From an uncultured delta proteobacterium (GTDB lineage: Bacteria; Myxococcota_A; Polyangia; Polyangiales; Polyangiaceae): 64,000 nucleotides of DNA. Positions 6,662 to 53,596 of the stretch are shown piece after piece (position 1 is the first letter of the stretch; each line of letters opens with the position of its first letter). A program made the translations under genes and the position numbers. The DNA is taken from the NCBI GenBank assembly GCA_963782055.1, contig CAWAIF010000003.1:3584001-3648000 (forward strand). The letters run 5' to 3'. The notes under the pieces are model-generated. The model was given only the letters and a program-made list of their open reading frames with translations, did no database searches and was not told where the DNA came from.

Positions 6662-6671
6662 GATGGAGAGC

Positions 6672-7028
6672 TTAGTTGTCGGGGGCGCCGCAGACCAGCC
6701 ACCCGAGCAACTTCGCGCGCTCGTCCGCGCCGAGCAATCCGTCCTGCGGCATGCGGCACGAGTAGACCTGGTTGAGCACCGCGCTGCGACGCACGTGGAC
6801 GTCGTCGTACGTGACGAGGGGCACGGTGCCCGCCGCGCCTCCTTGCGTGTGGCAGCGCGTGCAGCGGCTCGCGACGATGGGCTGCACGTCGGCCGACCAG
6901 CTCGGCGACGGCGTGGGGCACGCCGCGGGGAGATCGTTGGGACACGATCCACCGCCACAGGCCGCGAGGAGCGAGCTCGCCGCGAGGATCGCGACGATCG
7001 CGAGGATCAAAGAGACGTCCGCGCGCAC
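6672..7028 (-). CDS. Small monoheme cytochrome c lipoprotein
   Basis: Lipobox LAAC; VQPIVASRCTRCH; RMPQ as candidate distal Met; start uncertain. Confidence 0.75.
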   Translation of the reverse strand: MRADVSLILAIVAILAASSLLAACGGGSCPNDLPAACPTPSPSWSADVQPIVASRCTRCHTQGGAAGTVPLVTYDDVHVRRSAVLNQVYSCRMPQDGLLGADERAKLLGWLVCGAPDN

Positions 7029-34419: not shown

Positions 34420-35124
34420 TTACTTCGTCGCCAGGCTGTCCAGCAGGGTGTCGAGCTCCGCGCGGGCGGCGGTGACGCTCTTCTGCGGGCCGGTCATCTT
34501 GAAGAAGTGCGGCATGCCGGGCGTCTCGACGATGGCGCCGAGGAGCTGCCAGTTTTGCTCGGCGCCGCCGCTCATGCCACCGCCGAAGGTGCCCTCGACG
34601 CTGACCACGGTGACGTTCAGTCCCTTGACGGTGCGCTTGGTGACCATCGACTTCTTCTCGCCCTGGAACTGGTCGATCCAGCGCTGCACGTTGGCGTCCA
34701 CGCCGCCGCCGGCCTGGGTGACCGACAGCTCGGGGTCCGAGGTGTCGCCGGGGGCGTGCGGGATGCGGTAGGTCGCCAGGCGCATCGGGCTGGGGTTGGG
34801 TACCTTCTGCCAGCGCGCGGGCGCCGTCCACGTCAGGTTGCTCTCCGCCGCGGGCGGAGCCGTCATGCCGGCGGCGCCCATGCCCGCCGCGCCGCCCATG
34901 TCCCCGATCGGCGGGTGTCCAGGGGGTAGGTCGCCGGTCATCCCGCCGCCCATGTCCTCGTTGGGCTGGGGGTCCGCCGCCTGGTTGGCCACCGGCTCCG
35001 CTGCCCGGGCGACGGCCTCGGGCGTGGAGCGGTAAGCCTGACCGGCGGCGAAGGCCCCCGCGCCCACGATCGCCGCGACGATGACGACCGTGGGCAGACC
35101 GACCTTGACGTCTGCAAAGCTCAA
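34420..35124 (-). CDS. Membrane-anchored hypothetical protein (LPPGHPP linker plus PsbP/Mog1-like domain)
   Basis: N-terminal transmembrane helix; WTAPARW..MRLATY...GGVDANVQRWIDQF...FFKMTGP. Confidence 0.7.
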   Translation of the reverse strand: MSFADVKVGLPTVVIVAAIVGAGAFAAGQAYRSTPEAVARAAEPVANQAADPQPNEDMGGGMTGDLPPGHPPIGDMGGAAGMGAAGMTAPPAAESNLTWTAPARWQKVPNPSPMRLATYRIPHAPGDTSDPELSVTQAGGGVDANVQRWIDQFQGEKKSMVTKRTVKGLNVTVVSVEGTFGGGMSGGAEQNWQLLGAIVETPGMPHFFKMTGPQKSVTAARAELDTLLDSLATK

Positions 35125-35134
35125 GCTGTTCTTC

Positions 35135-36436
35135 TCACTGGGGTCGGCTGGGGAGGCTGCTGGGATCGGAGCCCTTGAGGGTCACGATGGAGTCCCAGAG
35201 CAGCTGCTTGGTGTAGGTGGGGTTGTGCACCCCGAAGTCGCCGCCGTGGGCGACCAGGAGGAAGTTGTATAGCGCGCCGGCGTGGGGTCCGTCGATGCTC
35301 AGGTTGCTCCCGTTGGTGCCGCTGCCCGCGCGCACCTTGTCCAGGGCGAACTGCCCGTCGGCCAGCTCATCCGGCTGCAAGGGGAGGTTCGGCTTGGTGG
35401 TGGAACGGGTGAGGTAGCCGGCGTCGTTGAGCAGGCCCTGGAGCTCGAAGAGCCCGTCGCGCACCAGCGACTGGCCGCCCTGAACGTCGTAGTTGGTGCC
35501 CTGGTAGGTGGTGTGGCAGGTCTTGCAGAAGGAGACCTTGGGCACCAGCGAGTGATCCGGCACGTTGGCGTTGTCGGGGTTGGGGCCCATGTGACAGCTG
35601 ACGCACGCGTTGGCGATCGTCATGTGGGTGGAGGTGCCGTACTTCATGCCGGCGAACTCGTAGCCACCCTTGCCGCTGTAGATGTCGCTCTGCGGCCCCT
35701 CGTGCGGGCCCCAGTAGGGGCTGGAAAGGACGTTGCCCGTCGCGGTGACGTAGGCGGTCACGTCCTTGCGCGACTTGTGGCAGAAGACGCAGACGTTGGC
35801 GGCCTTGAGGCTGATCGTCTGCCCTACGCCCGCCCCGCCGTCGGGGCTCTTCTCCAGGTAGACGACGTCGTTGGGACCGCCGGGGACGCGGATGGGCGCC
35901 GAGCCGGCGACGTACTTGCCGGTGACGTGCGGGTCGTTGGTGGAGTTGAAGTCGTGGCAGGTGGTGCAGTGGATCAGGCCGATGGTGCTCGAGCCGCCGT
36001 AGCCGATCTCGGTGACCTTGCCGTTGTTGGCGAGGAAGTTGGTGTGCCCCTTCGGCACGTCCACCGGCGTGCCGGCGTCGTCCGCGATGGAGTACATGTT
36101 GGCGACACGTTGCTGGATGCCATCCACCGCGTGGCAGTTGCCGCACGCCTCGCCGGGGGTGACCTCGCTCTCCTGCGGGTGCGAGTGCGCGCTCAGCTTC
36201 CACTCGTCGACGACGCCGCCGAAGGTGTGGCAGGGCGCAGTGCACGCGCCGCCGCCCGCGTCGGGGATCGTCGTCGGGCCGGCCGGACCCTCGGGGCCCG
36301 CCGGGCCTGTCGGGCCTGCGGCGCCGATCATGCCGGCCGCTCCCGGATCTCCCTTGTCGCCCGTGCAAGCGACCACAAGACCGACAGACATGATGGTGGC
36401 AAAGAAAGCGGTGAAGAGGGAGCGAGGGCGGGTCAT
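35135..36436 (-). CDS. Hexaheme cytochrome c lipoprotein with collagen-like stalk
   Basis: Lipobox VVAC; Gly-X-Y run; CTAPCH, CGNCH, CTTCH, CVFCH, CVSCH, CKTCH; PHEGPQ and GVHNP..LL.DSI motifs. Confidence 0.88.
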   Translation of the reverse strand: MTRPRSLFTAFFATIMSVGLVVACTGDKGDPGAAGMIGAAGPTGPAGPEGPAGPTTIPDAGGGACTAPCHTFGGVVDEWKLSAHSHPQESEVTPGEACGNCHAVDGIQQRVANMYSIADDAGTPVDVPKGHTNFLANNGKVTEIGYGGSSTIGLIHCTTCHDFNSTNDPHVTGKYVAGSAPIRVPGGPNDVVYLEKSPDGGAGVGQTISLKAANVCVFCHKSRKDVTAYVTATGNVLSSPYWGPHEGPQSDIYSGKGGYEFAGMKYGTSTHMTIANACVSCHMGPNPDNANVPDHSLVPKVSFCKTCHTTYQGTNYDVQGGQSLVRDGLFELQGLLNDAGYLTRSTTKPNLPLQPDELADGQFALDKVRAGSGTNGSNLSIDGPHAGALYNFLLVAHGGDFGVHNPTYTKQLLWDSIVTLKGSDPSSLPSRPQ

Positions 36437-36646
36437 GGGAGTCCTTCCTACTGGCGAGTTCGGTGGTGGATGCGAGGCCACGCCCCTGACGTCGCATGGG
36501 AACTGGTCGTCGACGCCCCCGAAGACTGGGCGGGCGGGCCTGCAGACGGTTGCCAGACCGGCTGCCTCGCCCCCGAAGACCACCTAAGCAGAGGTCATGC
36601 CGACGTGATAGAAGCGCAAAGGTGAGTATGGCAAGGCGAAACGCAC

Positions 36647-36678
36647 TGCAGACCGCGCGCCACGGCGAATACTTTGCA
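36647..36678. promoter_or_regulatory. Two back-to-back candidate sigma54 (-24/-12) promoters
   Basis: Minus 36647-36662 reads TGGCGCG-CGGT-CTGCA; plus 36663-36678 reads CGGCGAA-TACT-TTGCA; both are GG-N10-GC. Confidence 0.4.
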
Positions 36679-36743
36679 GGCGTCCCCTGCCGACTCGTGG
36701 TGACAACGGTGCGTCGGCCGGCGGGATGCATGTCGGGACGGCC

Positions 36744-38282
36744 ATGAGGGTGCTGGAACGGTGGAACGTGCGAGCGCTGGTGGCCCTCACGGCGGCCCTG
36801 TCCTGCTGCAGCGAGGCGCGGGACGACACCGGTCTGCCGCCCACCTACCACGGCAGCGTGGCGACGATCCTGGACGCCAGGTGCGCGAGCTGCCACTCCG
36901 GCGCTGCTCCCGCGGGCGGGTGGCGCGCGGACACCTACCTGGGGGCGATCGGGTGCACGGCGGACGGGACGCCGGCGATTGGACCCGGGCCAGTACCCAT
37001 CCTGACCGCGCTGGACCGGCCCGACCACGCCGGCTTCGCGACTGCGGACGAGCGCGACGAGCTCGCCCGATGGATCGCCGCCGGTGCGCCCAGCATCCGG
37101 AGCGGGACGCACGACGCCTCCTTCGCCGACCCTCGCTCGCCCGACAGCCACGGCCGCTTCCTGCGCGCGATGCGCTGGCGGCCGATGCTCGACCCGAAGG
37201 ACCCCGACGCGTGTGGCAAGTGCCACGACGGCGCGCCCACGCGACCGGCGGGCGCGCAGGGCTTCGCCCCCGGCGCCACGCCCTGCACCACCTGCCACAC
37301 TGACCCCGGCGGCGCGCTCGCGTGCAGCACGTGCCACGGCTCCCCCGGCAAGGCCTCCCCCCCGCGCGACAAGTGCTTCTTCCCCGATGACCCTCCGGAC
37401 GTCATCCACCCCGCGCACACAGGGCCGAGCCCGTCGAACGCGGGCGGCCTCCCCTGCTCCACCTGCCACCCGCAGCCGGCGCAGGGCCAGTTCGACGGCA
37501 CGCACGGCGATGGCCACGTGGAGGTCTGGTTCGACTACGCGGTAGCCGGCAACCAGGCGCACTTCGACGAGACCACCAAGCAGTGCACCGGCACCTGCCA
37601 CGACAAGGGCGGCGCGCGTCCCGGCCCCTCCTGGACCGAGACGACACCGATGACCTGCAACGACTGCCACACGTCGCCGCCGGCCAACCACTACGCGGGC
37701 GCGTGCACCTCCTGCCACAAGGAGGCGAACGCCACGGGCACGGCGCTCGTGGACCCGCACCTGCACGTCAACGGCAAGGTGGATCTGGGCGACGGCAGCG
37801 GCAAGTGCGGGGCGTGCCATGGCGCCGGTGACCGCCCCTGGCCGTCGACAGGCGCGCACCTGGCGCACCTGCTGCCCAAGTTCGCGGCGCCAGTGTCGTG
37901 CGACACCTGCCACCCGGTGCCGGGCGCGGGGGACAAGCACCCACTCGGACTCGGCGCCCCCATCGTGCGGCTGGTGGGCCTGGCGACGGCCGGCGCCCGC
38001 CACCCGACCTACGATCCGCAGACCAAGACTTGTGCGGACACCTACTGCCACGCGGGCCCCGGCGCGAGCGTGCCCGCGCCCAAGTGGACCGACGGGCCGA
38101 AGGCGATCACCTGCGGCGGGTGCCACGCCATCCCGCCGAGCGCCCCGCACTCGACGGGCACCAACTGCAGCACCACCACGTGCCACCAGGGATCGACGAC
38201 GCTGATCGCCAGCGGACCCGTGCTCACGCCTGCGGGCGCGAAGGTCCACGTGAACGGGGTGATCGACCGGCAGGTGCCCTAG
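36744..38282 (+). CDS. 13-heme CxxxxCH/CxxCH-type cytochrome lipoprotein
   Basis: Lipobox-like ALSCC; 10 CxxCH, 1 CX3CH (CTGTCH) and 2 CX4CH (CADTYCH, CSTTTCH); HxNG/HxDG repeats and P.W...C..CH pairs. Confidence 0.9.
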   Translation: MRVLERWNVRALVALTAALSCCSEARDDTGLPPTYHGSVATILDARCASCHSGAAPAGGWRADTYLGAIGCTADGTPAIGPGPVPILTALDRPDHAGFATADERDELARWIAAGAPSIRSGTHDASFADPRSPDSHGRFLRAMRWRPMLDPKDPDACGKCHDGAPTRPAGAQGFAPGATPCTTCHTDPGGALACSTCHGSPGKASPPRDKCFFPDDPPDVIHPAHTGPSPSNAGGLPCSTCHPQPAQGQFDGTHGDGHVEVWFDYAVAGNQAHFDETTKQCTGTCHDKGGARPGPSWTETTPMTCNDCHTSPPANHYAGACTSCHKEANATGTALVDPHLHVNGKVDLGDGSGKCGACHGAGDRPWPSTGAHLAHLLPKFAAPVSCDTCHPVPGAGDKHPLGLGAPIVRLVGLATAGARHPTYDPQTKTCADTYCHAGPGASVPAPKWTDGPKAITCGGCHAIPPSAPHSTGTNCSTTTCHQGSTTLIASGPVLTPAGAKVHVNGVIDRQVP

Positions 38283-38295
38283 GGGCGTTCCGCGG

Positions 38296-40296
38296 CTAGC
38301 GCCGGAAGACGTGGCAGCCGTTGCATGCGGCGGCGGCGGGCTGGTGACCGCGCCTGTCGGTGTGGCACTTGCCGGTGCACGTGACGCGGTCGGCGTGCGG
38401 CGGACCGTGGGGGACGTGGCAGGTCAGGCAGGCGATGGCGTGACCCCGCACCGTGTGAAGACCGGGGAGCCGCGCGCGCTGGTGACAGGTGGTGCAGGCG
38501 GGCGGTGAGGCCGGCCCCATGGGGCCGTGGGGCCGGTGGCATGTCCGACAGCCCGCCGCGGCGAGCACGCCCACCGGGCGGCCGTGGATGGCCTTCGCCT
38601 TGTCGGCGTGGCAGCTCGTGCAGGCCGCGTGGACGCCGAGCGAGCCGGAGTGCGGGTCGTGGCAGCCGGTGCACTTCGCGTGGCCCGGCGGCGCGGTGTG
38701 CACCTCGGTCGCGTGACAGGACACGCACGTCGGCTTCGCCACCGGGGTGTGGGGCGCGCCGTGGCAGCCCTGGCAGTTGCGGTGGCCGGGGCGCTCCAGG
38801 ACGGCGGTCGCCATCGGCACGTGGCAGCGACCGCAGAGCTGTGGGCCGAGGCTGGCCAGGTTGAACTGGTGCGGGCGGTGACAGCCCTCGCACCGCACCT
38901 TGCCGGGGGCGTGGAAGGACCGGTCGTCGTGCGCCTGCGAGTGGCAGGTGGAGCACGCCGACGCCACCGTGGACGGCGATGTCGGGTGCGGGCTGTGACA
39001 GCCGACGCACGCACCAGGCTGCGGCGGACCGGCGGGGCTGGTCCCGCTCTTGACGGAGGCGAACTGCGCGGCCGCCGCCGGGTGGCTCGGGTGCACGCCC
39101 TGGTGACAGCCGGCGCACGCGAGCGCCGGCGACGCGCCTGGACGATGAGGATCGTGGCAGCTGGTGCAGACCGCGTGTGCCGGCACGCGGTCCGACGCAA
39201 GCGCGTGCACGCCGGCGTGACACCCGCCGCACGAGGAGGCGGCCTGGCTGAAGGCGTGCGGCTTGTGGCACCCGGTGCAGGAGTGCCCGGCAGTCGCCAG
39301 CGCGCCGGAGTGGTCCTGGTGACAGCCCAGGCACGGCTTGACCGTGGCGCGGGTGGCGTCGTGAGGGATATGGCAGGTGTCGCACGCCTCGTGGCCAGCC
39401 ACGTGCGGGCCGAAGGGCCGCACCTTCGGCGCGGAGACCGAGAGGGCGGCGAGCATCGGGCCGGGGCGATCGGAGGGCGGGCCGGTGCGCGCGGTGGTGG
39501 CGGCGAAGCCCGCGCCGACGTGGCACTTCATGCACACGGTCCGCGCCTGCGCCAGGGTGGCGTGGGGCGCGTGGCAGGTGGTGCAGACCTGCCCGGGCGC
39601 CGCGTGCTCCGGCGCGAGGGGCGCGGCCACCGAGGCCAGCTCCCCTTCGCGCGGGGCCACGAAGGGAGGCGACGGGGCGCCAGCCTCTCGGGCCGCCGTG
39701 ACGGCCGCGGCCACGGGGTGGACCTCCGCGTCGATGGGGACGCCCGCGTCCCGTACCGCCACGGCGAAGCCGTCGTGCTTCGCCCCGACGCCGGCGTGAC
39801 ACGTCGTGCAGTCGGCCAGCACCACCGCGCCCGCCCGCGTGGCGGGGTGCATGACGTGGCACGCGTCGCACGCGACATCGGCCGTCGCGTGACCCGCAAT
39901 GGCGGCCACGGCGCCTTGCGGCTTGGTGTGGCACGTCACGCACGGAGTGGCGGCCCCCGGCCGGAATGCATGACACGTCAAGCACGTGGTGGGCGACCGC
40001 GCGTCGCCGACGTGGGCGTGCGCGACCTCGGCGGCGTGGCACCCCTTGCAGACGCTCACCTGGGGGTGTGGGTCGAAGGTGTTGCCCTCACCGTGGCACT
40101 TGCCACAGGGGATGTGCTTCTGGTCGACGTGGACCTTGTGCATCGGCGCGGTGCGCGCCTGCTGCCAGGTGAGCGGCACCGCCTCCTTCGGCGAGGGCAG
40201 CGGCGTACGCTGCCGCGCCAGGAAGAAGACCAGCACCCCGAGCGCCGCGGTGAGCGCGAGGGCGGCGAGCCAGACTCGAGCGCGGGGCAGCTTCAT
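38296..40296 (-). CDS. 27-heme membrane-anchored multiheme cytochrome c
   Basis: ATG at 40296; N-terminal transmembrane helix; 26 CxxCH plus CTGKCH, many arranged as CxxCHxPH...CxxCH doublets. Confidence 0.9.
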   Translation of the reverse strand: MKLPRARVWLAALALTAALGVLVFFLARQRTPLPSPKEAVPLTWQQARTAPMHKVHVDQKHIPCGKCHGEGNTFDPHPQVSVCKGCHAAEVAHAHVGDARSPTTCLTCHAFRPGAATPCVTCHTKPQGAVAAIAGHATADVACDACHVMHPATRAGAVVLADCTTCHAGVGAKHDGFAVAVRDAGVPIDAEVHPVAAAVTAAREAGAPSPPFVAPREGELASVAAPLAPEHAAPGQVCTTCHAPHATLAQARTVCMKCHVGAGFAATTARTGPPSDRPGPMLAALSVSAPKVRPFGPHVAGHEACDTCHIPHDATRATVKPCLGCHQDHSGALATAGHSCTGCHKPHAFSQAASSCGGCHAGVHALASDRVPAHAVCTSCHDPHRPGASPALACAGCHQGVHPSHPAAAAQFASVKSGTSPAGPPQPGACVGCHSPHPTSPSTVASACSTCHSQAHDDRSFHAPGKVRCEGCHRPHQFNLASLGPQLCGRCHVPMATAVLERPGHRNCQGCHGAPHTPVAKPTCVSCHATEVHTAPPGHAKCTGCHDPHSGSLGVHAACTSCHADKAKAIHGRPVGVLAAAGCRTCHRPHGPMGPASPPACTTCHQRARLPGLHTVRGHAIACLTCHVPHGPPHADRVTCTGKCHTDRRGHQPAAAACNGCHVFRR

Positions 40297-41354
40297 GGGG
40301 CGTGGCAGAGGACGCAGGGCGTGTCGTGGGTCTTGTCGAGCGTGCTGTTGAAGCCGGGTCCGTGCGGGTTGCCGCCCGCGCCGCCCACCTTGTGACAGCC
40401 GACGCAGAGCATCTCGCCGGCGCCGCCGTGGCAGGCCGCGCACGAGGCGGGGTCCATGCGCGCGGCGGGCCCGTGCGCGCCGCCGCTCGCCAGCACCCAG
40501 CCGGGCGGGTGAGGGCTCTTGCCGCCCTGCGGGGTGGTGGCGCCCACCTGGTCGCGCTCGTGGCAGTCGGCGCAGAAGCGCTCGCTGCGGTGGCAGGTGC
40601 TGCACAGGCCGGGCGACGCGCGCGCCTCGTCGGCGTGCCGTGAGACGAAGCCGGCCGGGTGCAGCCCCTCCACGCGCGGCCGGTCGAAGCGGAGCTTCCA
40701 CGGCAGGGCGGGCGTGGTCACGCCGTGGCAGCTCGCGCAGAAGTGCTCCTCGTGACAGGTGGCGCACAGGTCGCGAGAGGCGGCCGCCTGCACGCCGTGC
40801 TCGCGGAGGAAGTCGCCGTCGTGCACCAGGTGGCTGGTCGGGGTGACGTGCTCGGCGGGGAGGTCCACGTGGCACGCGTTGCAGTCGCGGACGCGCCACT
40901 GATCCTTGTGCACGTGGCAGGTGAAGCACTGCGCCATCGGCGGGCGAAGCGTCGCCTGCTCGGTGCTGCCAGCGCCCACGTGGCACACGACGCACTGCCC
41001 GCGCACCTGCGCGACGTGCTTGGCGTGCGCGAAGCGCAGGTGCTGGCGGGCGAGCTCGTCCTCCTGCTCGGTGTGGCGCATGCCGTGGCAGGTCAGGCAA
41101 TCACGGGTGTCGTGGGGCTTGCGGTGGCACGAAGCGCACTTCTTCGCGGAGGGGAGGTGGAGCGGGCCGGTGTCGCCGGCGCGCTGCACGCCCTCGTGGC
41201 AGACCAGGCAGTTGATGCCCTTGAGGGAGTGCGCGCGGTGCTCGAAGGGGTGCTGCTGATCGCGCGGGTGAATCCCGAGCACGCCGGCGCACGCCGCGAC
41301 GGAGAGCGCGAGCAGCAACGGCAGCAGGGAGCGAAGCGAGGGGCGGCGCGTCAC
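40293..41354 (-). CDS. 13-heme cytochrome c3/c7-like lipoprotein
   Basis: GTG at 41354; lipobox VAAC; FEHRAH and FAHAKH; 13 CxxCH. Confidence 0.9.
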   Translation of the reverse strand: MTRRPSLRSLLPLLLALSVAACAGVLGIHPRDQQHPFEHRAHSLKGINCLVCHEGVQRAGDTGPLHLPSAKKCASCHRKPHDTRDCLTCHGMRHTEQEDELARQHLRFAHAKHVAQVRGQCVVCHVGAGSTEQATLRPPMAQCFTCHVHKDQWRVRDCNACHVDLPAEHVTPTSHLVHDGDFLREHGVQAAASRDLCATCHEEHFCASCHGVTTPALPWKLRFDRPRVEGLHPAGFVSRHADEARASPGLCSTCHRSERFCADCHERDQVGATTPQGGKSPHPPGWVLASGGAHGPAARMDPASCAACHGGAGEMLCVGCHKVGGAGGNPHGPGFNSTLDKTHDTPCVLCHAP

Positions 41355-42563
41355 CGCGCCCTCTCGAAGGTGTAGGAGAGCCGGGCCAGGGCGTCGATCT
41401 CGTGCTTGTACTGCGGGCCGGCAGAGGCCTCCAGCGCGGCGGCGACCTCCCAGCCCGGCGCCGGGCGGTAGCCGACGGAGGCGAGGGCCCACGGCCAGAG
41501 GTCCCCCTGCCCGTTCGGGTCATCCGGGCGCACCAGCTCCAGCTCCGCGCCGGCGTGGAAGTGCCACGGGAGCGGCAGGCTCGCGGTGGCGCGGATGCCG
41601 ACCCACCGCGAGGTGTCGAAGTAGACGCGTCGCAGCTCGGCGCCGAGGGTGCCGTTCCACTTGTCGTCCAGGGCGAGGCGCCCGCGGAGCGCGACCTGCC
41701 CGCCCACGATGTCGTCCTGCACCTGCGCCGACGCCGTCCCCACCAGCTTCAGCCGGGGCGCGGCCTTCCAGTAGACGCTGCCGCCCGTGGTGGTCGCCGC
41801 GATGTCCCCCAGCACCGAGAAGAGCGACGTCTTGGGGAGAAGCCGGCCGGGCGATCGACTGGTGAGGAACGCCTCGAAGCGGAGCGGGCCGGTCTGCACC
41901 GAGGCGGAGACGAGCGCCTCGGCGAGGCCGGGGTCGATGAGAATCGAACGCGGCGCGGCCTGTCGCGGAGAAGACCTTGCCCGGCGTGAGCGTCAGGTCG
42001 GCGCCCGCTTCCTGGTACTCGGGGTGCTCCTCGTTACGCTGCTGCATGTACGATCCGCCGACGGCCAGCCAGTCCCCTGCGGTCTGCGCGACGCGTCCGC
42101 CGACGGCCCACTCGACGCCGTGGTAGTCGAAGCGGGGCGCCACAGGGAAGCCCCCGAATGCCTCCACGCTCGTCCCCCACGGCAGGCGCAACAGCCCCCG
42201 CACTCCGTCCAGGTGGAGCGGCCGGATCGCGCCGGTGGCGATCACCATGCGCCCCGCGCGCACCTCGCCGAGGCCGTGCGGATCGCGGACGCGAACCGAG
42301 AGCGTCAGCACGTCGCCGGTGGCCTCCGGATCGTTGGTGACGCCCACCCACATCACCGACTCGGCGTCCACCCACGGTCGCAGCCGGTCCTGGCCGGTGA
42401 GCACGAGCAGCCCCGCGGGGGTGCCCGACTGCGGCGACGTCTGGACGAGAGCGTCGCCCCGCAGGCGCAGCGGATCCGCCGCGGCGATCGCGGGGACCAG
42501 CGCAAAGGCTGCGGCCAGAAGGGTCACGAGAGACTTGCCTCCGTGACGACGAGACGCTTTCAT
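41351..42563 (-). pseudogene. Outer-membrane beta-barrel (porin of a porin-cytochrome module) with a +1 frameshift near 41942 (possibly a sequencing error)
   Basis: Signal peptide AAA|DP, amphipathic strands and C-terminal ARLSYTF. Removing one A from GAATC (41941-41945) joins the two frames as AAFDLIDPGLAEAL. Confidence 0.75.
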
Positions 42564-42596
42564 CGCGGTTCCATTGAGTGGTACGAGCAAATCGGC

Positions 42597-43250
42597 ATGC
42601 ACGAGTGGCTAGGATGGACAGCGTTGGGGTGTGCGGGGATCGCGGCGGCGCTGCTGATCCAGCACCTGTGGCGCAGGCCCGCCCTCACTCCGGACACCCG
42701 CCTGCGCCTCCTCTTCGGGCTGGGCGTGTTTCCCATCCTTAGCGCCGGCGCGGCCAACATCAAAGGTTTCCAGTCGATGGAGTCTCGCAAGTTCTGCGGC
42801 TCCTGCCACGTGATGATCCCCCAGGCGACGGATTCGCGAAACCACCAGAGCCACTCGCTCTCCTCCATTCACGCGCGCAACAAGTTCTTCGGGGAAGACA
42901 ACTGCTACTCGTGCCACGCGGACTACGGCATGTACGGCTTCGTCGTCACCAAGATGGGTGGCATGCGGCACGTCTACTACTACCTCACCAAGTTCCGGTC
43001 TGTCCCGGTCGACGAGGCGAAGCGAGAGATCCGCATCAACAAGCCGCTGCCTAACGGCAACTGCATGGAGTGTCACACGACCACGGCGCCCGACTGGCTG
43101 GAGATCGGCGACCATGCCTCCGCGGTGGAGGGCGTACGCAACGGCAGCATCTCGTGTGCGAGCCCCGGCTGCCACGGCTACGCCCACCCCAACACCAAGA
43201 CCGCCGCCGAGCTCGAGCTGGCGCGGCCGGTGGGGGACGCCGGGCTGTGA
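42597..43250 (+). CDS. NapC/NirT family tetraheme quinol dehydrogenase
   Basis: Two N-terminal transmembrane helices; FCGSCHVM, CYSCH, TKMGG, NCMECH and CASPGCH. Confidence 0.85.
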   Translation: MHEWLGWTALGCAGIAAALLIQHLWRRPALTPDTRLRLLFGLGVFPILSAGAANIKGFQSMESRKFCGSCHVMIPQATDSRNHQSHSLSSIHARNKFFGEDNCYSCHADYGMYGFVVTKMGGMRHVYYYLTKFRSVPVDEAKREIRINKPLPNGNCMECHTTTAPDWLEIGDHASAVEGVRNGSISCASPGCHGYAHPNTKTAAELELARPVGDAGL

Positions 43251-43531
43251 AGCTGCGCATCCCCTCCAACGACGCCACGCTCCGCATCGCGTGCGTGATG
43301 GCGCTCCTGGCGCTCCCGCTGATGGTGTGGTCCGTCTTCGACCCCACCGTGTGGCCGATCATGGTCGCCCTCTCCGTCGGCCAGGCGCTCGGGACGCTCT
43401 CCTTCTTCGCCTTCCTGGTGGTCGTCGCGCGCGACCTGCGCATCCGCCGGAAGCTGCGCATCCAGGCCGCCACCGACGCGGCGAGCCTCCCGCCGCCCAG
43501 CGTGAGCGAGCCCCCCGAGTCGAAGGGATGA
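43247..43531 (+). CDS. Small two-helix membrane protein coupled to the NapC/NirT gene
   Basis: GTGA overlap; two hydrophobic helices. Confidence 0.7.
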   Translation: MKLRIPSNDATLRIACVMALLALPLMVWSVFDPTVWPIMVALSVGQALGTLSFFAFLVVVARDLRIRRKLRIQAATDAASLPPPSVSEPPESKG

Positions 43532-43616
43532 TTCCCTTCACGGCGGCTTCCGGGCATCGGGGCGGCCTGTGCCGCCCCGGCGACGAGTGAGAGCGCCGTC
43601 CTGGACGGCTCTGGAG

Positions 43617-43698
43617 TGCGAAGGAGGGGACTTGAACCCCTACGGTGTTACCCGCTAGCACCTCAAGCTAGTGCGTCTGCCAATTCCGCCACCTTCGC
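43617..43698 (-). tRNA. tRNA-Leu(GAG)
   Basis: GCGAAGG/CCTTCGC acceptor stem, CTAGC-TTGAGGT-GCTAG anticodon arm, long variable arm, GGTTCAAGTCC; CCA not encoded. Confidence 0.95.
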
Positions 43699-44811: not shown

Positions 44812-46089
44812 TCAGCCCTCCGTGGGCGGTATCTTGGGGGTGTTGCCGCTCGTCAGGCGCCGGGCGGCGGCGGCGAGGTCGATGCCGGTGGCGGCGCGCA
44901 CCTGCTCGGCCGTGAAGATGGCCTTGCGGGCGAGATCGCCGTCCTGGACGGTGGGAAGGACGGTGAGCTTGCGGACCCCGACCTTCTGCGTGGCCCCGGC
45001 GATGGCCTGGGCGAGGGGCATCATCTTCTGCACGACGAGCACCTCCCGCGCGGAGCTGCCGGCGCGCTTGTACTGCTCGACGAGGGCGTGCAGCGAGGCG
45101 GCCTGCGCCCTGCCCTGCTCCACGATGCGGGCGGCGGCGCCGCGCGCCCGCTCCTCCGAGGCCTTGCGCTGGGCCTCTGCCGGCTGGACCACCTCGGCGT
45201 CCAGCTTGCGCTGCACCTGCAGGACGCGGGCCTTCTGCCGCTCGATCTCCGCGCGGGTCTTGGCGACCTCGGCGGCGACCTGACCCTCCGATTCGGCGAT
45301 CATGGCTGTCCTCTTGGATCGCGCGTCGGCGATTCGCTTGGCGTACTGCTGCCGGGCGATCTCCAGGTCGGCGTCGATCTTGGCCAGCTCGGCGTTCATG
45401 ATGTTGGTCGCCTTCTGGACCGCCGCGTCGGCCTGGGCGGAGGCCTCGGCGATGGCGGCGTCCTGCCGGACCGTGGCGCCGCGGATGCGGCCGATGGAGT
45501 TGAAGTAGCCGACGTCGTCGGAGACGCTCTGGATCTTGAGCGTGTCCAGCGCGAGGCCCATGCGGTTCATGTCGTGCTCGGCCTCCTCGATGAGGCTCTG
45601 CGCGAAGCGGGTCTTGTCCTCGTTGACCTGCTGCGGGGTGAGCTGCGCGAGCACGCCGCGCAGGTTGCCCTCCAGCGTCTCCTTGGCGATACGCATGATC
45701 TCCGGCTGGGACTTGCCGAGGAAGCGCTCCACCGCGTTGGCGAGCAGGTTCTCCTCGCCGGCGACCTTGACGTTCGCCACGCCGACGACGTTGAGCGGGA
45801 CGCCGCCGCGCGCGTAGGCGTTCTGCACGACCACGTCGATCGTGAAGGTGGTGAGGTCGATGCGGTCCACCTGCTCCAGCAGGGGCACGCGCAGGCTGCG
45901 ACCGCCGCGGACGGCGCGGTAGCCGACCTCCTTGCCGCTGACCAGGCGGCGGCGGCCGCTGAAGATGAGCGCCTCGTTGGGGGTGCTCACGTAGAGCAGA
46001 CGACGGAGCATCATCGAGAGGAAGATGAGGACGACGAACGCCGCGAAGACCAGGACCGCGATGATCCCGAAGGGGTTGTTGCCATTCAT
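44812..46089 (-). CDS. Flotillin (SPFH) protein 2
   Basis: N-terminal transmembrane helix, PNEALIFSG, LEGNLRGVLAQLTP and Ala/Glu-rich coiled coil. Confidence 0.92.
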   Translation of the reverse strand: MNGNNPFGIIAVLVFAAFVVLIFLSMMLRRLLYVSTPNEALIFSGRRRLVSGKEVGYRAVRGGRSLRVPLLEQVDRIDLTTFTIDVVVQNAYARGGVPLNVVGVANVKVAGEENLLANAVERFLGKSQPEIMRIAKETLEGNLRGVLAQLTPQQVNEDKTRFAQSLIEEAEHDMNRMGLALDTLKIQSVSDDVGYFNSIGRIRGATVRQDAAIAEASAQADAAVQKATNIMNAELAKIDADLEIARQQYAKRIADARSKRTAMIAESEGQVAAEVAKTRAEIERQKARVLQVQRKLDAEVVQPAEAQRKASEERARGAAARIVEQGRAQAASLHALVEQYKRAGSSAREVLVVQKMMPLAQAIAGATQKVGVRKLTVLPTVQDGDLARKAIFTAEQVRAATGIDLAAAARRLTSGNTPKIPPTEG

Positions 46090-47435
46090 CGCGAGCCTCC
46101 CCTCAGGGTGGCGGGCGGCAGCTCGCCGGGTGGACTCGAGCCCACCGGGCCGATGAGGGCGCGGACGTCCACGCCCATCGCCCGGCCGGTCTCCTCGAGC
46201 ACGCGCGCCACGCTCATGGAGAAGGCGGAGGCCACCGCGCCGAGGCTCCGGCCGTCGCCGCCGTCGACGATCTCCAGCTCGGTCACCTCGAGCTGGGAGA
46301 CGCGGGCGACCGCCGCGGCGACGACCCCGTCGAGCTGCTGCAAGAGGTAGATGTCGCGGCCGCTCCCGCCGGCCGCGGCCCACTCCGCGACCACGAGGCT
46401 GAGGGCCTCGGCGGTGGCCTTGCCGTTCTCGGTGATGGGCGCCGCCTCGCCGCGCGCGCGCGACGCCTGCGCCTGGGCCTGGGCCTCGGCGGGGAGCACC
46501 GTCTCGACCTGCAGCGCGAGCTTGGCGAGCTCGGCGCGCAGCCCCTGGAGGTCCTGCTCGGCCTTGGCGCGCGCGGTCTCCGCCGCCACCTGCGCCTCGT
46601 TCTCGATGCCCTGCGCCTCCGCCTCCAGCTTGGCGATCTCCGCGCGGAAGCCGTTGCGCCTCTGGAGGATCTGCGCCTCCGCCTGCTGCTGCGCGCTCTC
46701 GGCGCGCTGCCGGTTCTTCGCCTGCTCCTCCTTCACGCGCTGGTCGGCCTGGCTCTCGGCGTTCTGTCCGTCGCGCACCATGGCGGCGATCTGCGCGCGG
46801 CCGAGGTTCTGCAGGTACTTCTGGTCGTCGGCGACGTGCTGGACCTTGAGCACGTCCAGCTCCAGGCCCAGCTTGTCGAAGTCGTCCTTGGCGTTGTGGA
46901 CCAGCGAGCCGGCGAACTTCAGGCGGTCCTGGTTGACCTCCTCCGGGGTGAGCTGGCTCAGCACCTCGCGCAGGACGCCTTCGAGCGTCTGCTTGGCGAC
47001 CATCAGGATCTGGTTGGTGGGCACGCCCAGGAAGCGCTCCACGGCCTGCCGCACCAGCTTCTCGTCGGTGGAGATCTTGACGTTGGCGATGGCGTGGACG
47101 TTCAGGGGGATGCCGCCCTTGGAGAAGGCGTTCTGCACCGCCACCTCCACGCCGTACAGCCGTACGTCCATGCGCGAGACCTGCTCGAGCAGCGGCCAGC
47201 GGAGGGCGCGGCCCCCGTGGATCACCTTGAAGCCCACCTGCGAGCCGTCCGGCAGCTTGTGCTTGCGGCCGGAGAAGACCAGGATCTGGTTGGGAGCGCA
47301 GATGTAGAGGAAGCGCGTCACGAAGAAGACGACGATGAACAGCGCCAGGAGCGCGCCCACGCCCACCCCCAGGCTCTGCGCGAGGTCGGCGGGATCGAGG
47401 ATCGTGTCGCCGCCCGGTGTCGGTAGAGGAGCCAT
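46086..47435 (-). CDS. Flotillin (SPFH) protein 1
   Basis: PNQILVFSG, LEGVLREVLSQLTPEEVN and EA-rich coiled coil. Confidence 0.92.
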   Translation of the reverse strand: MAPLPTPGGDTILDPADLAQSLGVGVGALLALFIVVFFVTRFLYICAPNQILVFSGRKHKLPDGSQVGFKVIHGGRALRWPLLEQVSRMDVRLYGVEVAVQNAFSKGGIPLNVHAIANVKISTDEKLVRQAVERFLGVPTNQILMVAKQTLEGVLREVLSQLTPEEVNQDRLKFAGSLVHNAKDDFDKLGLELDVLKVQHVADDQKYLQNLGRAQIAAMVRDGQNAESQADQRVKEEQAKNRQRAESAQQQAEAQILQRRNGFRAEIAKLEAEAQGIENEAQVAAETARAKAEQDLQGLRAELAKLALQVETVLPAEAQAQAQASRARGEAAPITENGKATAEALSLVVAEWAAAGGSGRDIYLLQQLDGVVAAAVARVSQLEVTELEIVDGGDGRSLGAVASAFSMSVARVLEETGRAMGVDVRALIGPVGSSPPGELPPATLRGGSR

Positions 47436-48098: not shown

Positions 48099-49493
48099 CT
48101 ACTCCTCCACCACCCGCGCGCCGTCGCCCTCGGCCGTGAGCAGGTCCAGGGCCTTGCGCGCGGCCTCGACCGTGATGTTGCGCGCCTCGACGATCATGGC
48201 GGCGACGCGCTCGACGAGGCCGCCCTCCGCGCCGGCGGCCATGGCCACCGCGCGGGCGTGCAGCGCCATGTGGCCGCGCTGGATGCCGTCGGTGGCGAGG
48301 GCGCGGACCGCCGCCAGGTTGGAGGCGAGGCCGACCGACGCCGCGATGGCGGCCAGGTCCTGCGCCCCGCGCGTGTCCAGGATGCGCAGCGACAGCCGCG
48401 CGGCGGGGTGCACGCGCAGGGTGCCGCCCACCGTGCCGAGCGCCATCGGCAGCTCCAGCCGACCGAGCAGCTCGTCCCCCTCTCGCCGCCAGGTGGCCAG
48501 GGGCGCGTAGCGTCCGCTCCGCGCCGCGAAGGCGTGGGCGCCTGCCTCCACCGCGCGCCAGTCGTTGCCGGTGGCGATGACGACGGCGTCGATGCCGTTC
48601 ATGATGCCCTTGTTGTGCGTGGCGGCGCGGTACGGGTCCGCCTCCGCGAAGCGCGAGGCGTTGACGATGCCGTCGATCACGGCCGAGCCGTCCATCCCCT
48701 CGGTGGCGAGGACGCGCGCCGGGATGCGGCAGCGGACGCGCACGCAGCGGCGGTCGCAGAGGTTGGACAGGATGCGCAGGCCCACGCGGCCGCCGGAGAG
48801 CTCGGCGAGGCGCGGGGCGACGGCCTCTGCCACGCCGTTGACGAGGTTGGCGCCCATGGCGTCGCGGCAGTCGACGAGCACGTGCACCGCCATCATGCCG
48901 TCCTCGGGCGTGGTGCCCTTCGGGCTGTCGGCCCGCGCTTCGCGCGGGACCTCGGGTGACGTGCCCTTCGGGCTGTCGGCCCGCGCTTCGCGCGGGACCT
49001 CAAGGAAGCGCACGTCCAGCTCGCGCGCGCCGCCGCCGCGCTCCACGAGGCCGGGGATGGCGCGGTCCGCCAGGGCGAGGACCTCCTCGGCGTGGGCGAG
49101 CACCTGCGCGCGTGCCCGCTCGCGATCGCGCACCTCGATGAGCTGCACCTGGGCGATCATCAGCGGGGGGTCGGTCTCGACGGCGAAGCCGCCGCCCGCG
49201 CGCACCATCTTGGCGGCGTTGGACGCCGCGGCCACCACGCTGGGCTCCTCCACCACCATCGGCACGACGTGGTCGTGGCCGTTGACCCGCACGTTGAGCG
49301 CCACGCCGTAGGGGAGCGCGTAGATGCCGATCACGTTCTCGACGAACTTGTCGGCGGTGTCCTCGTCCAGGCCGCCGCCGTCCAGCGAGCGCGCCATGTC
49401 CGCGACCTCGACGCCGGTGGCCTCGCTCACCAGCGCGCGCCGCTCCTCCACCGTCATCTTGTAAAAGCCCGGGAATCTGGACGTACGTGCCAT
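48099..49493 (-). CDS. mvaA: Class II HMG-CoA reductase carrying an in-frame tandem-repeat insertion
   Basis: ENVIG, EEPSVVAA, DAMGAN, THNKGIMNG and GIQRGHM. Confidence 0.93.
   Translation of the reverse strand: MARTSRFPGFYKMTVEERRALVSEATGVEVADMARSLDGGGLDEDTADKFVENVIGIYALPYGVALNVRVNGHDHVVPMVVEEPSVVAAASNAAKMVRAGGGFAVETDPPLMIAQVQLIEVRDRERARAQVLAHAEEVLALADRAIPGLVERGGGARELDVRFLEVPREARADSPKGTSPEVPREARADSPKGTTPEDGMMAVHVLVDCRDAMGANLVNGVAEAVAPRLAELSGGRVGLRILSNLCDRRCVRVRCRIPARVLATEGMDGSAVIDGIVNASRFAEADPYRAATHNKGIMNGIDAVVIATGNDWRAVEAGAHAFAARSGRYAPLATWRREGDELLGRLELPMALGTVGGTLRVHPAARLSLRILDTRGAQDLAAIAASVGLASNLAAVRALATDGIQRGHMALHARAVAMAAGAEGGLVERVAAMIVEARNITVEAARKALDLLTAEGDGARVVEE
48902..49001. repeat. 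Tandem 48-bp palindromic repeat (about 2.1 units) inside the HMG-CoA reductase gene
   Basis: Identical 41-mer at 48913-48953 and 48961-49001; each unit holds the hairpins GCCC-TTC-GGGC and CCCGCGC-TTC-GCGCGGG. Confidence 0.92.
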
Positions 49494-49500
49494 GTGCTCC

Positions 49501-50391
49501 TCACGAAAGGACGGTGACGCCGTCCACGTCGACGTGGAGGTCGAGCGCATTCATGCCGGCTCTCCCCGCGCGCTGCAAGAACGCGTGGGAGGGCTCTCGC
49601 GTACCGACGAAGACACCGACGTCGCCCCCACCTGCGCCGGATGGCGCGAAGGCGGCGCCCTCGGCGCCGGCGGCCGCGGCGAGATCGGCGAACGCCGCGG
49701 GGACGATGGGGGCGTCGGCCGCCGCGCCCAGCGCGGCGAGCGCGGGAACCGACGCGGCGATCTCGGCGACGAACGCCCCCGCGTCCCCGGCGAGCGCCGC
49801 CGCGGCGGCCCGCCGGGCGATCGCCGCGAGCGCCGCCATGTGCGCCGCGTGGGCCGCGGCGTCGCGGGCGCGCAGGGCGTCCACGCGGGCGCGCAGGTCG
49901 CTGGTGCGGGCGCTCTGCCCGCTGAAGAAGGCGCGGACCAGGAGGCCCGGCGGAATACGTGTACTCTGCACGCTCACCGCCGGCCCCTCGCGACGGAAGA
50001 CGATGACGCCGCCGAAGACACTGGCGGCCACGTCGAAGCCGCTGCCACCACCCTGGACCCCGGCGTGCGCGGCGAAGGCCGCCTCGCGGAGCGCCTGGCG
50101 CACCGCGGGGTCGCGCACGTCCTCCCCGCGCTCCGCCGCGCGCAGGGCGAGCGCAGCCACCACCGCCGCGGCGCTGGAGCCGAGGCCCAGCTTCGTGTCC
50201 CCGTCGCAGAGCGCGCTCGTGTCGATCTCCGGCGGGTCGTCCATCGCGGCGCGGACCTCCGCCGGCGCACCGGCGGCCCCCCTGCCCTGCGCGAAGGCGT
50301 GACGGTCGACCGCGCACACCACCGCGGGCGCGCCCTCCAGCACGGCGTACGCCCCGGAGAGCAGCAGCTTGCCGGGCGCCCGCGCCCTCAC
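49501..50391 (-). CDS. Phosphomevalonate kinase (GHMP family)
   Basis: APGKLLLSGAYAVL, KLGLGSSAA, GSGFDVAAS and SGAGGGD. Confidence 0.85.
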   Translation of the reverse strand: MRARAPGKLLLSGAYAVLEGAPAVVCAVDRHAFAQGRGAAGAPAEVRAAMDDPPEIDTSALCDGDTKLGLGSSAAAVVAALALRAAERGEDVRDPAVRQALREAAFAAHAGVQGGGSGFDVAASVFGGVIVFRREGPAVSVQSTRIPPGLLVRAFFSGQSARTSDLRARVDALRARDAAAHAAHMAALAAIARRAAAAALAGDAGAFVAEIAASVPALAALGAAADAPIVPAAFADLAAAAGAEGAAFAPSGAGGGDVGVFVGTREPSHAFLQRAGRAGMNALDLHVDVDGVTVLS

Positions 50392-51377
50392 GGCTCCGCC
50401 TCCACCACGCGCGCGCCGGGGCCCGGCCTCGCCTCGATCACCCGCAGCACGCCGGGCGTCGCCTCCAGCAGCGCGCGCGCGCGCGCCGCGTCGGCCCCGG
50501 CGGACAGGACCTTGACGTGCGGCCCCGCGTCCATCGTCGCGAAGGCGAGCATCCCGGCGTCGCGCAGCGCGTTCACGCGGGCGAGCGCCTCCAGCGTCGC
50601 CGGCGCGAGGTACATCACACCGGCGGCGATGGCCGCCGCGTGCATCGCGAGGGCGCTGCGTTCGGCGAGCTCGCCCACCGCGCGCAGGTCGCGCGCGAGG
50701 AGCGCCTCGCGCATCGCGGCGAAGATGCGGGGCGCCTCCGCAAGCCACGCCGCGTAGTACGGGCTGGTGGCGGCGGTGCGGTTCATCCCCTCGCGCGAGG
50801 AGACCTCCTTCGGCGACTCGCGCGTGACGCAGACGAGCATCGTCACGTCCAGGTGGTCCGCGGGGGCGAGGGGGCGCGCGGCGAGCGGCTCCGTCTCCTC
50901 GCCCTGCGAGGCGCCGGCCGGGAGCTCCACGAAGCCTCCGAAGACGCTGCGCGCGGCGCTCGCCGAGCTGCGCCGCGCCAGATCGCTGAGGCGCGCGGGG
51001 TCCCAGTCGAGCGCGTAGGCACGCGCCGCGGCGAACGCCAGCGCGGCGAAGCCCGAGGCGCTGGAGGCCAGGCCGCCGGCGGTGGGGAAGTCGTTGTCGC
51101 TCGTCACCCGCGCGAAGCGGGCGTCGCCGGTGGCCTCGCGGACGCGGCCGAGCAGCTCGCGGACGCGGTCGAGCTCGGCGGGCCCGCACGGCGCGCCGTT
51201 GAGGACGAGCACGTCGTCGGCCAGGGCGGGGTCGACGTCCACGCGCGTGCGCGTCCGCAGGCCGTCCAGCGTCATGGAGAGGCTGGGCACCGCCGGGTAG
51301 TTACCCGCGCGCCGCTGCTTGCCCCAGTACTTGGCGAGGGCGATGTTGGGGTGCGCGATGGCGATGGCGTGGCTCAC
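50388..51377 (-). CDS. mvaD: Diphosphomevalonate decarboxylase
   Basis: HPNIALAKYWGK, FPTAGGLASSAS and TMDAGPHVK. Confidence 0.95.
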   Translation of the reverse strand: MSHAIAIAHPNIALAKYWGKQRRAGNYPAVPSLSMTLDGLRTRTRVDVDPALADDVLVLNGAPCGPAELDRVRELLGRVREATGDARFARVTSDNDFPTAGGLASSASGFAALAFAAARAYALDWDPARLSDLARRSSASAARSVFGGFVELPAGASQGEETEPLAARPLAPADHLDVTMLVCVTRESPKEVSSREGMNRTAATSPYYAAWLAEAPRIFAAMREALLARDLRAVGELAERSALAMHAAAIAAGVMYLAPATLEALARVNALRDAGMLAFATMDAGPHVKVLSAGADAARARALLEATPGVLRVIEARPGPGARVVEAEP

Positions 51378-53406: not shown

Positions 53407-53567
53407 CGCCGCCTGCTCCCACGCGCGCGCCGGCGCGGGCAGCCCTGTAGCACGAGTCGAGGCGGCGGCGCAGGCGAGCGAATCGGTGCGTTTTAGCATC
53501 GAAGAAACAACGTGAAAGGGCCCCGGAAAATCCCGCCTGCGGGCGTCGTCGGGCCCGTGCCCCCCGA

Positions 53568-53596
53568 ACCGTAGGGGGCCAGCCCGCGGAAGTCAA
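53568..53596 (-). promoter_or_regulatory. sigma70-type promoter of the mevalonate operon
   Basis: TTGACT-N17-TACGGT on the minus strand. Confidence 0.5.

Follow-up and report, generated by a model that had tools for sequence, protein, structure and literature searches.

The CymA-MtrCAB/OmcA, MtoAB and PioAB systems combine a NapC-family quinol dehydrogenase with a barrel-embedded cytochrome and a surface cytochrome, and the same logic can be read in a gene cluster from an uncultured member of the Polyangiaceae (Myxococcota), which we analysed within a stretch of 64,000 nucleotides (the window). The components are different, however. The Mtr/Mto/Pio barrel (PF11854) has 26-28 strands and ~650 residues compared to 22 strands and ~400 residues for the window barrel, the Mtr/Mto partner is a DmsE/MtrA decaheme instead of a 13-heme lipoprotein, and the OmcA/MtrC decaheme (TIGR03507) is absent from the window cluster while present in the clusters of many relatives. 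Profile searches gave no match to PF11854 (MtrB/PioB) in the host genome and none to TIGR03508 (DmsE/MtrA decaheme) at E 0.01 for the 13-heme protein, which carries a lipobox. The preliminary description of this DNA, according to which the components look unlike MtrA/MtrB, was thus correct on this point.

In layout the cluster resembles the Pcc clusters of Geobacter and Anaeromyxobacter (OmbB-OmaB-OmcB; group IV Adeh_3391/3392), where a porin of 18-22 predicted strands lies next to a multiheme cytochrome and the outer cytochromes are variable, some having atypical CX3-15CH motifs, as is also the case here (PMC4245776). The Anaeromyxobacter porin (18-22 strands) adjoins a 12-14-heme cytochrome of ~340 aa; partners with 12 hemes measure 338-344 aa (PMC4245776), and the 13-heme partner in the window 353 aa. 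In Pcc clusters the porin is always linked to a gene for an exported cytochrome of 5-14 hemes. The architecture, earlier proposed to be undescribed, is not that of MtrA/MtrB, but its porin and cytochrome follow a published layout. Unlike Pcc clusters, that of the window includes a NapC-like quinol dehydrogenase and its two-helix partner; clusters of its type further contain a wire of 24-34 hemes and surface proteins that are OmcA/MtrC or OcwA-like, and the barrel partner, a lipoprotein, begins with an ActA/c7-like module.

The ExtEFG and ExtABCD clusters of G. sulfurreducens likewise place a heme lipoprotein after a barrel (18-21 predicted strands), and have a conserved core around which outer cytochromes are replaced by non-orthologues (PMC6148476); ExtG/GSU2724 has atypical heme motifs, as do cytochromes here. 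The Ext lipoprotein beside the barrel has five hemes and not 13, belongs to a different phylum, and no quinol dehydrogenase is described for the Ext gene sets (PMC6148476). Very heme-rich members are also found in other predicted porin-multiheme clusters, PCC3/PCC4 (PMC5566968) and EET1-4 from peat (bioRxiv 10.64898/2026.05.27.727921), all from other phyla; the main text of the latter paper mentions neither Myxococc- nor Polyangi-. In PCC3/PCC4 there is also an inner-membrane protein that has five helices and two HX13H motifs (PMC5566968), while the only heme-free inner-membrane protein in the window cluster has two helices and no His. The likeness to OmbB, ExtB, ExtE and Adeh_3391 is one of layout, as drawn from published descriptions. 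The paper defining Pcc used BLAST E < 0.01 for similarity (PMC4245776), and among the matches listed in our barrel and cytochrome homologue searches there was no named Geobacter or Anaeromyxobacter, no PDB entry and no plasmid.

With a probability of roughly 0.7, we consider the window cluster to be a porin-cytochrome conduit leading from quinol to the cell surface and organised like the Pcc/Ext clusters of Geobacter and Anaeromyxobacter, not like the Mtr system.

Cytochromes of the cluster

The gene order and strands given earlier for positions 35135..43531 agree with our re-check of the coordinates, and a motif count on the predicted proteins returns the same 63 heme motifs (4+13+27+13+6), of which 57 are CxxCH and six atypical; the genome-wide background is 0.41 CxxCH per 8.4 kb (six-frame ORFs). 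On the left the cluster extends further, to a conserved secreted or membrane-anchored protein of uncertain start (34420-35124, minus strand) that the first reading had overlooked. It has a homologue beside eight of the 82 barrel homologues that we collected, with 45-58% identity in three type-A loci, and no Pfam or NCBIfam match. Its best Atlas matches are unnamed clusters, and the nearest named ones (DcrB/DUF4946/PsbP, ~0.90) share few features with it; as a lead only, it is possibly PsbP/DcrB-like.

The NapC/NirT-family tetraheme (217 aa; 42597..43250, plus strand) matches PF03264 with 35.3 bits (cut-off 24.1) and is followed by a 94-residue protein with two hydrophobic helices and no His (43247..43531, plus strand), the two-helix partner noted on first inspection; the two genes occur together in 12/12 loci having either. 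Three of its motifs are CxxCH and the fourth is Cx4CH, a pattern found in 12/12 relatives. NrfH is its best NCBIfam match (E 5e-10) but, like all NCBIfam equivalogs, lies below the cut-off. The membrane helix expected of the tetraheme falls below the threshold of the hydropathy scan (1.6), which called no helix. We regard the tetraheme as a candidate quinol dehydrogenase.

The 27-heme cytochrome (666 aa; 38296..40296, minus strand; 26 CxxCH and one Cx3CH) has 24.7 aa per heme, 40 free His and a hydrophobic helix at residues 8-26 in place of a lipobox, and its start codon (ATG) shares bases with the stop codon of the 13-heme gene. Judged from these features, it is a candidate wire spanning the periplasm.

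Besides the barrel partner, the cluster has two further lipoprotein cytochromes, which may face the outside. One (512 aa; 36744..38282, plus strand) has 13 motifs of CxxxxCH/CxxCH type (10 + 1 + 2), scores 73.7 bits against TIGR01904 (cut-off 27) and occurs with 30 of the 82 barrels. The other (433 aa; 35135..36436, minus strand; lipobox VVAC24) has five CxxCH and one Cx3CH motifs, a short Gly-X-Y linker and a putative C-terminal helical bundle of NrfA/OcwA type. The "collagen stalk" attributed to it earlier amounts to only ~30 residues, under the Pfam cut-off. In a region that takes in the terminal helices and the last two hemes, its family profile matches NrfA (8bcx, E 8e-6) as well as 6i5b (E 2e-5), and the protein reaches 21 bits against TIGR03507 (OmcA/MtrC; cut-off 209). 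The active-site heme motif of NrfA is CxxCK, and KxQH/KxRH is also typical of NrfA; a motif search found neither in the six-heme protein, and it has no PF02335 match. An NrfA-type heme core and a C-terminal three-helix bundle are present in OcwA, a nine-heme surface cytochrome of the Gram-positive Thermincola potens (PMC6703420); the similarity of the six-heme protein, a lipoprotein of a diderm, to OcwA is weak. The nitrite-reducing activity of OcwA is weak, and CxxCK is given as a motif in the same paper, which names 6I5B once (PMC6703420). We regard the six-heme protein as an NrfA/OcwA-like candidate for a surface terminal reductase, and its gene is the most replaceable part, accompanying 10/82 barrels.

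The barrel and its partner

One extra base at 41942 interrupts the reading frame of the barrel gene (41351..42563, minus strand), and the conduit is therefore not "complete", as was first claimed, in the sequence as given. Reading through with X gives 403 aa ending in LSYTF, in keeping with the ~400-aa beta-barrel noted at first. An AF2 model of a homologue with 60% identity (P0002; pLDDT 83.5) has 22 strands and no plug. Foldseek matched the model to 22-24-strand barrels, with usher translocation pores in the top rows; fold likeness between large barrels is unspecific. By sequence, homologue searches gave no Pfam, NCBIfam or PDB family for the barrel, and none of the 82 homologues matches PF11854 or any NCBIfam family. 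A geometric estimate puts the Calpha diameter at ~40 Å for 22 strands versus ~48 Å for 26, i.e. tighter than MtrB.

The lipoprotein encoded next to it (353 aa, 13 CxxCH; 40293..41354, minus strand) consists of an N-terminal six-heme ActA/c7-like module and a C-terminal seven-heme module, the latter modelled at low confidence (pLDDT 44-78, without hemes) and with no fold match. Barrel and cytochrome form a fixed pair: a multiheme cytochrome gene adjoins 81 of 82 barrel ORFs, the remaining one being at a contig end, and where only the barrel was used to choose loci, the cytochrome gene is immediately downstream in 61/62. In nine loci it is reduced to the seven-heme module and still adjacent. For 43 of the 82 barrels no other multiheme gene was present inside the fetched 8-20 kb, and an obvious input or output is therefore not found with every pair.

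The surface partners vary between loci. Many relatives' clusters have an OmcA/MtrC decaheme, and all seven that were tested exceed the TIGR03507 cut-off, i.e. are true members of that family. Labilithrix luteola, which is cultured, has the same cytochrome set as the window cluster, with AKV00463.1 and AKV00464.1 as its barrel-cytochrome pair.

In the conduit that we favour, the NapC-like tetraheme and its two-helix partner would oxidise quinol, and the membrane-anchored 27-heme protein would span the periplasm. The 13-heme lipoprotein, if fully loaded with heme, would accept electrons at its six-heme module, which is ActA/c7-like and would lie in the periplasm, and thread its seven-heme module into the plug-less 22-strand barrel. 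The CxxxxCH and the six-heme NrfA/OcwA-like lipoproteins (OmcA/MtrC in many relatives), if facing outwards, would, under oxygen shortage, hand electrons on to acceptors outside the cell, for example Fe(III), Mn(IV) or humics. The first reading of the cluster as a porin-cytochrome conduit is supported by the plug-less model, the barrel-cytochrome adjacency and OmcA/MtrC in relatives' clusters, while its claim to a novel architecture is less so. Weighing against the conduit are the low-confidence model of the seven-heme module, the tighter barrel, the pairs lacking other multiheme genes and, in this genome, the frameshift and the reduced number of conserved barrel columns.

Frameshift, direction of flow and other functions

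A truly frameshifted barrel had been named at the outset as grounds for rejecting the conduit. The extra base is in the assembly, but the gene is in a single frame in 15/15 full-length matches from relatives and the assembly has other frameshifts (three in 189 non-barrel orthologue matches, ~196 kb); both make an assembly error likely, and we find this probable rather than a real lesion. The converse, that the cluster in this genome is an acquired, decaying island whose conduit is dead, would be compatible with a conduit in the family as a whole. Apart from the extra base, it could draw on the tRNA-Leu(GAG) gene at the right edge (43616..43698, minus strand), a possible insertion site, on flank genes of which 0/8 were found in 12 type-A loci of relatives, and on a barrel tree where the nearest relative is L. 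luteola and not the same-genus genomes. Moreover, the barrel retains 114 of 121 highly conserved columns (homologue median 120; as few in 10/109), placing it in the lowest tenth. Against decay, the seven other genes are intact with all heme motifs present, the GC content equals that of the left flank (0.722 vs 0.726), and the barrel branch is not long (0.40, as for L. luteola); together with the further frameshifts in the assembly, this leaves decay possible but unlikely.

The same conduit might also run inwards, from Fe(II), reduced humics, cathodes or other cells to the quinone pool and on to oxidases or an N2O reductase. NapC-family cytochromes are reversible, and the host has three oxidase types (aa3, cbb3 and bd) and a full-length NosZ homologue as sinks; with NosZ besides these oxidases the host is not simply aerobic, although its lineage was described at first as usually regarded as aerobic. 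Two-gene porin-cytochrome pairs without a surface partner, like the 43 above, typify Fe(II) oxidisers (PMC4245776). The subfamily of the window, however, carries OmcA/MtrC or OcwA-like surface proteins, which are known terminal reductases, and no NiFe hydrogenase was found; inward flow appears improbable. We rate equally low that the barrel, instead of sheathing an electron path, serves as a channel by which heme lipoproteins are exported or anchored, or that the cytochromes are a periplasmic electron store (capacitor) for short anoxic spells. The usher pores, type-A loci lying among universal-stress/CBS genes in two genomes (G034 and G019) and the storage offered by 63 hemes are in line with this, but large-barrel similarity is no specific guide, and one particular cytochrome family always comes next after the barrel, even when cut to seven hemes, a pattern more readily expected with a structural partner than with a general exporter. 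Finally, the NapC-like and six-heme proteins might make up a periplasmic reductase of NrfHA type for nitrite (or sulfite/hydroxylamine), to which the other cytochromes would be carriers. This is very improbable in spite of the NrfA and NrfH best matches and the activity of OcwA (PMC6703420), given the missing NrfA signatures and a six-heme gene that is exchanged while the barrel pair is fixed.

Distribution in the Myxococcota and implications

Among 301 sampled Myxococcota genomes, the barrel profile matches 98 and that of the partner cytochrome 145. A second subfamily, in which barrel and cytochrome stand alone as a pair, occurs widely across the phylum; this genome has a copy (C3:1411746-1414700), and a cytochrome match is present in 26 of 27 genomes of one family (f26). 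The MHCscan supplement already lists the L. luteola cytochromes and flags the 13-heme protein of this species as one that FeGenie does not detect. Since, in addition, the barrel belongs to no Pfam or NCBIfam family, homology-based iron-cycling screens likely miss the core of such clusters. We found no experiment on the cluster in the literature, but L. luteola DSM 27648, a type strain available in culture, has it, and it can therefore be tested directly. If the conduit reading holds, extracellular electron transfer in the Myxococcota would not be limited to Anaeromyxobacter, and in structural terms a conduit of 22 strands whose periplasmic module is ActA-like would be a novelty alongside MtrAB.

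A wider and more doubtful proposal is that the 22-strand barrel and the seven-heme module constitute an unrecognised, phylum-wide outer-membrane wire of the Myxococcota, unrelated to the Geobacter Pcc porins, with the stand-alone pair as the ancestral form and one subfamily having added a quinol dehydrogenase of its own as well as surface cytochromes borrowed from elsewhere. If so, extracellular electron exchange, possibly with prey or neighbour cells, would be a general trait of bacteria known mainly as aerobic predators.

Cluster genes and the barrel reading frame

The five cytochrome genes of the preliminary description and their motif counts were borne out: the NapC-like gene (42597-43250, + strand; three CxxCH and one Cx4CH), the 13-heme lipoprotein gene (40293-41354, - strand; 13 CxxCH), the 27-heme "wire" (38296-40296, - strand; 26 plus one Cx3CH), the CxxxxCH-type cytochrome (36744-38282, + strand; 10 + 1 + 2 motifs) and the six-heme, OcwA-like cytochrome (35135-36436, - strand; 5 + 1 motifs), in total 57 canonical and six atypical motifs. 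Genome-wide, CxxCH occurs at only 0.41 per 8.4 kb; of the 182 such motifs that lie in ORFs with at least two, the locus accounts for 57 (7.58-Mb, 97%-complete genome). The barrel (41351-42563, - strand) and 13-heme genes share a four-base overlap, as do the 13-heme and 27-heme genes. The cluster protein homologues that carry names belong to Labilithrix and other Polyangiales/Myxococcales, from which the host is reasonably taken to be a myxobacterium of Polyangiales type. The parts and their linkage are directly observed, and judged from sequence we consider this a real, conserved, predicted porin-multiheme cluster. A separate five-heme lipoprotein-like cytochrome (5327-7006, - strand) has weak ExtKL/UshA-like matches below cut-off, and similar five-heme genes are present elsewhere in this genome, at C3:3486002 and C3:6800154.

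The conduit had also been called complete, which held for the cytochrome genes and motif counts but not for the barrel gene, broken by one extra base at 41942. In this assembly the barrel is FRAMESHIFTED and is not contained in any one ORF; the frame switch lies near 41940 as judged by codon-position GC. With X put at the extra base, the read-through product has 403 aa, carries a signal peptide and ends in an LSYTF strand. All 15 full-length matches, from 12 relatives, are single-frame (41 genomes searched; 15 matched, including its own). The control was a comparison of the window's genome with 514 ORFs drawn from 37 loci in relatives. It yielded 191 orthologue-like matches, 196 kb in all, of which 184 stayed in one frame and 7 were split. 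The barrel accounts for two of the 7 and the query for two more; the other three are frameshifts elsewhere in this genome, and hence approximately 1.6% of genes carry such a break. These three lie at G000:C3:1434721, 3122520 and 3967535, in genes that are otherwise conserved. The window barrel's branch (0.40, same as L. luteola) is not long in a tree of 67 barrels. Of 121 highly conserved columns the protein retains 114, a low score yet within that of intact homologues, which range from 105 to 121 with a median of 120; 10 of 109 score no higher. The extra base is quite likely an assembly error; that the conduit copy in this genome is dead, a matter separate from the mechanism, is the less likely reading.

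A barrel-cytochrome pair with exchangeable partners

The barrel represents an unannotated 22-strand family whose surface partners are modular. Of 301 genomes sampled across the phylum, its profile matches 98 (with six candidates scored in each) and the 13-heme profile 145. Among 62 loci selected by barrel match (44 from the 301-genome sample, 18 from other barrel searches) the 13-heme protein has a homologue directly downstream in 61, the remaining one stopping at a contig edge, and the barrel is directly upstream in 19 of 19 loci selected by cytochrome match. Since these same loci went into the final barrel profile, its E-values are not independent.

Altogether 82 barrel ORFs were found, 37 in heme-rich clusters, 43 isolated over the 8-20 kb retrieved and two other. 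Their partners include a CxxxxCH cytochrome (30), a wire with 19 or more hemes (20), an OmcA/MtrC-like decaheme (14; 7 of 7 tested in relatives passed the TIGR03507 cut-off), the NapC-like protein and the two-helix protein (43247-43531, + strand, in the window) always together (12), an OcwA-like cytochrome (10), the secreted or membrane-anchored 34420-35124 protein (8) and a 7-8-heme membrane cytochrome (3). Gene order is exactly as in the window in one relative (G243, locus L097). In G258 and G273 an OmcA/MtrC decaheme accompanies the NapC, barrel, 13-heme, wire and CxxxxCH genes.

Several variants were also seen. CxxxxCH-type cytochromes with 26-34 canonical motifs lie directly upstream of the barrel in L042, L044, L045, L049 and L050 (family-level groups f29, f37). 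The partner is cut down to the C-terminal seven-heme module in L059, L079-L082, L089, L090 and L099 (f26; cytochrome profile matching 26 of 27 genomes) and in L093. In L119-L122 (f43) a weakly related barrel, a seven-heme homologue, and diheme and 7-8-heme proteins are encoded one after another. After the pair at L038:6354-13186 come genes for a DsrP/NrfD-type membrane protein, which scores above the NF045798 cut-off, for a tetraheme and for Rieske/cytochrome b-like proteins, together a possible third quinone link. The type-A clusters (a class of 12 loci) of G034 and G019 lie amid universal-stress-protein, CBS-domain and response-regulator genes (L034:11941-14119, L035, L030:16771-17415; one UspF-like match, others read from sequence), surroundings suggestive of low-oxygen control. 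A second, distant pair in the window's own genome (G000:C3:1411746-1414700; L058:7747-10703) lacks any further multiheme neighbour across 18 kb and belongs to a separate stand-alone subfamily, in whose cytochrome the lipobox is by a crude pattern mostly missing (present in 2 of 41 vs 34 of 39 others).

In the barrel tree (quick maximum-likelihood search, midpoint root, kin not independent) a heme-rich subfamily of 30 rows (29 rich, one alone), containing the window copy, is set apart from stand-alone rows with SH-aLRT 96, and the rich/alone label changes 3 times vs 22 in shuffles. The nearest barrel is that of L. luteola (54%), not those of same-genus genomes, a tRNA-Leu gene lies at the cluster edge and the flanking genes are not shared with relatives; together these suggest a mobile or differentially retained cassette.

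Predicted electron path and related systems

We infer, with a probability of about 0.68, an outward porin-cytochrome conduit from quinol to an extracellular acceptor; its assembly, topology, direction and acceptor are predictions. Quinol would reduce the NapC-like tetraheme, which would pass electrons to the 27-heme wire and from there to the six-heme, ActA/c7-like N-module of the 13-heme lipoprotein; they would then enter its seven-heme C-module inside the barrel and may leave through the surface lipoprotein cytochromes. Inward electron flow is improbable, and an export channel or periplasmic capacitor equally so; an NrfHA-like reductase is very improbable. No standard periplasmic partner for the NapC-like gene was present in the genome among those tested, nor did the genome search give an NrfA-length match, a NiFe hydrogenase or NirK.

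The working logic resembles that of CymA-MtrCAB, but barrel and partner tests failed and Mtr membership is ruled out. The conserved barrel motif 'P...SIFxVF' presumably resembles ExtB/ExtE, and the His-rich C-module ExtC/ExtF, which we take as a lead only. By described layout, not sequence, the cluster agrees with Pcc as architecturally defined: in the text available of Shi et al. 2014 (PMC4245776) porins have 18-22 strands and partners 5-14 hemes, and a two-gene Anaeromyxobacter cluster (Adeh_3391/3392) is included. With the Geobacter Ext clusters, as far as the available part of PMC6148476 describes them, this cluster shares a core that is conserved while the outer cytochromes are replaced. 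PCC3/4 identity is excluded, since the five-helix protein given as a PCC3/4 feature in the portion available of PMC5566968 is missing. Parts of the cluster have been noticed before. In the accessible MHCscan supplement (PMC11475568) four L. luteola cytochromes stand in succession, 349, 584, 514 and 438 aa long and with 13, 26, 11 and 6 motifs, the barrel being absent from that listing; length and heme count lead us to identify the first as AKV00464.1, which is encoded beside barrel AKV00463.1. A lake survey (bioRxiv 10.1101/2022.03.26.485925, available part) has Myxococcota richest in novel multiheme clusters, alongside MtrC and ExtABC matches. No description of this cluster was found in the available text of the literature searched, including PMC12133095, PMC11492766, PMC11495043, PMC8805035 (term search) and a peat preprint (bioRxiv 10.64898/2026.05.27.727921).

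Host metabolism and significance

Its gene content marks the host as an aerobe with enzymes suited to low oxygen and probably to N2O. An aa3-type oxidase adjoins alternative complex III, and cbb3 and bd oxidases and three cytochrome c assembly matches are present. None of the four molybdopterin matches (NasC-like, FdhF/YdeP, NuoG and an unassigned one) reaches a NapA cut-off. A full-length NosZ homologue (G000:C3:6721575-6723443) scores 418 bits where the clade-I model demands 625, and is probably clade II. Elsewhere in the window, two SPFH/flotillin genes (44812-47435) precede HMG-CoA reductase and GHMP-kinase genes of the mevalonate pathway (48099-53596, - strand).

The conduit logic is not new, and reports of comparable predicted conduits are coming from other phyla; the cluster is worth following because of its breadth across Myxococcota, its stand-alone subfamily and the cultured test strain.
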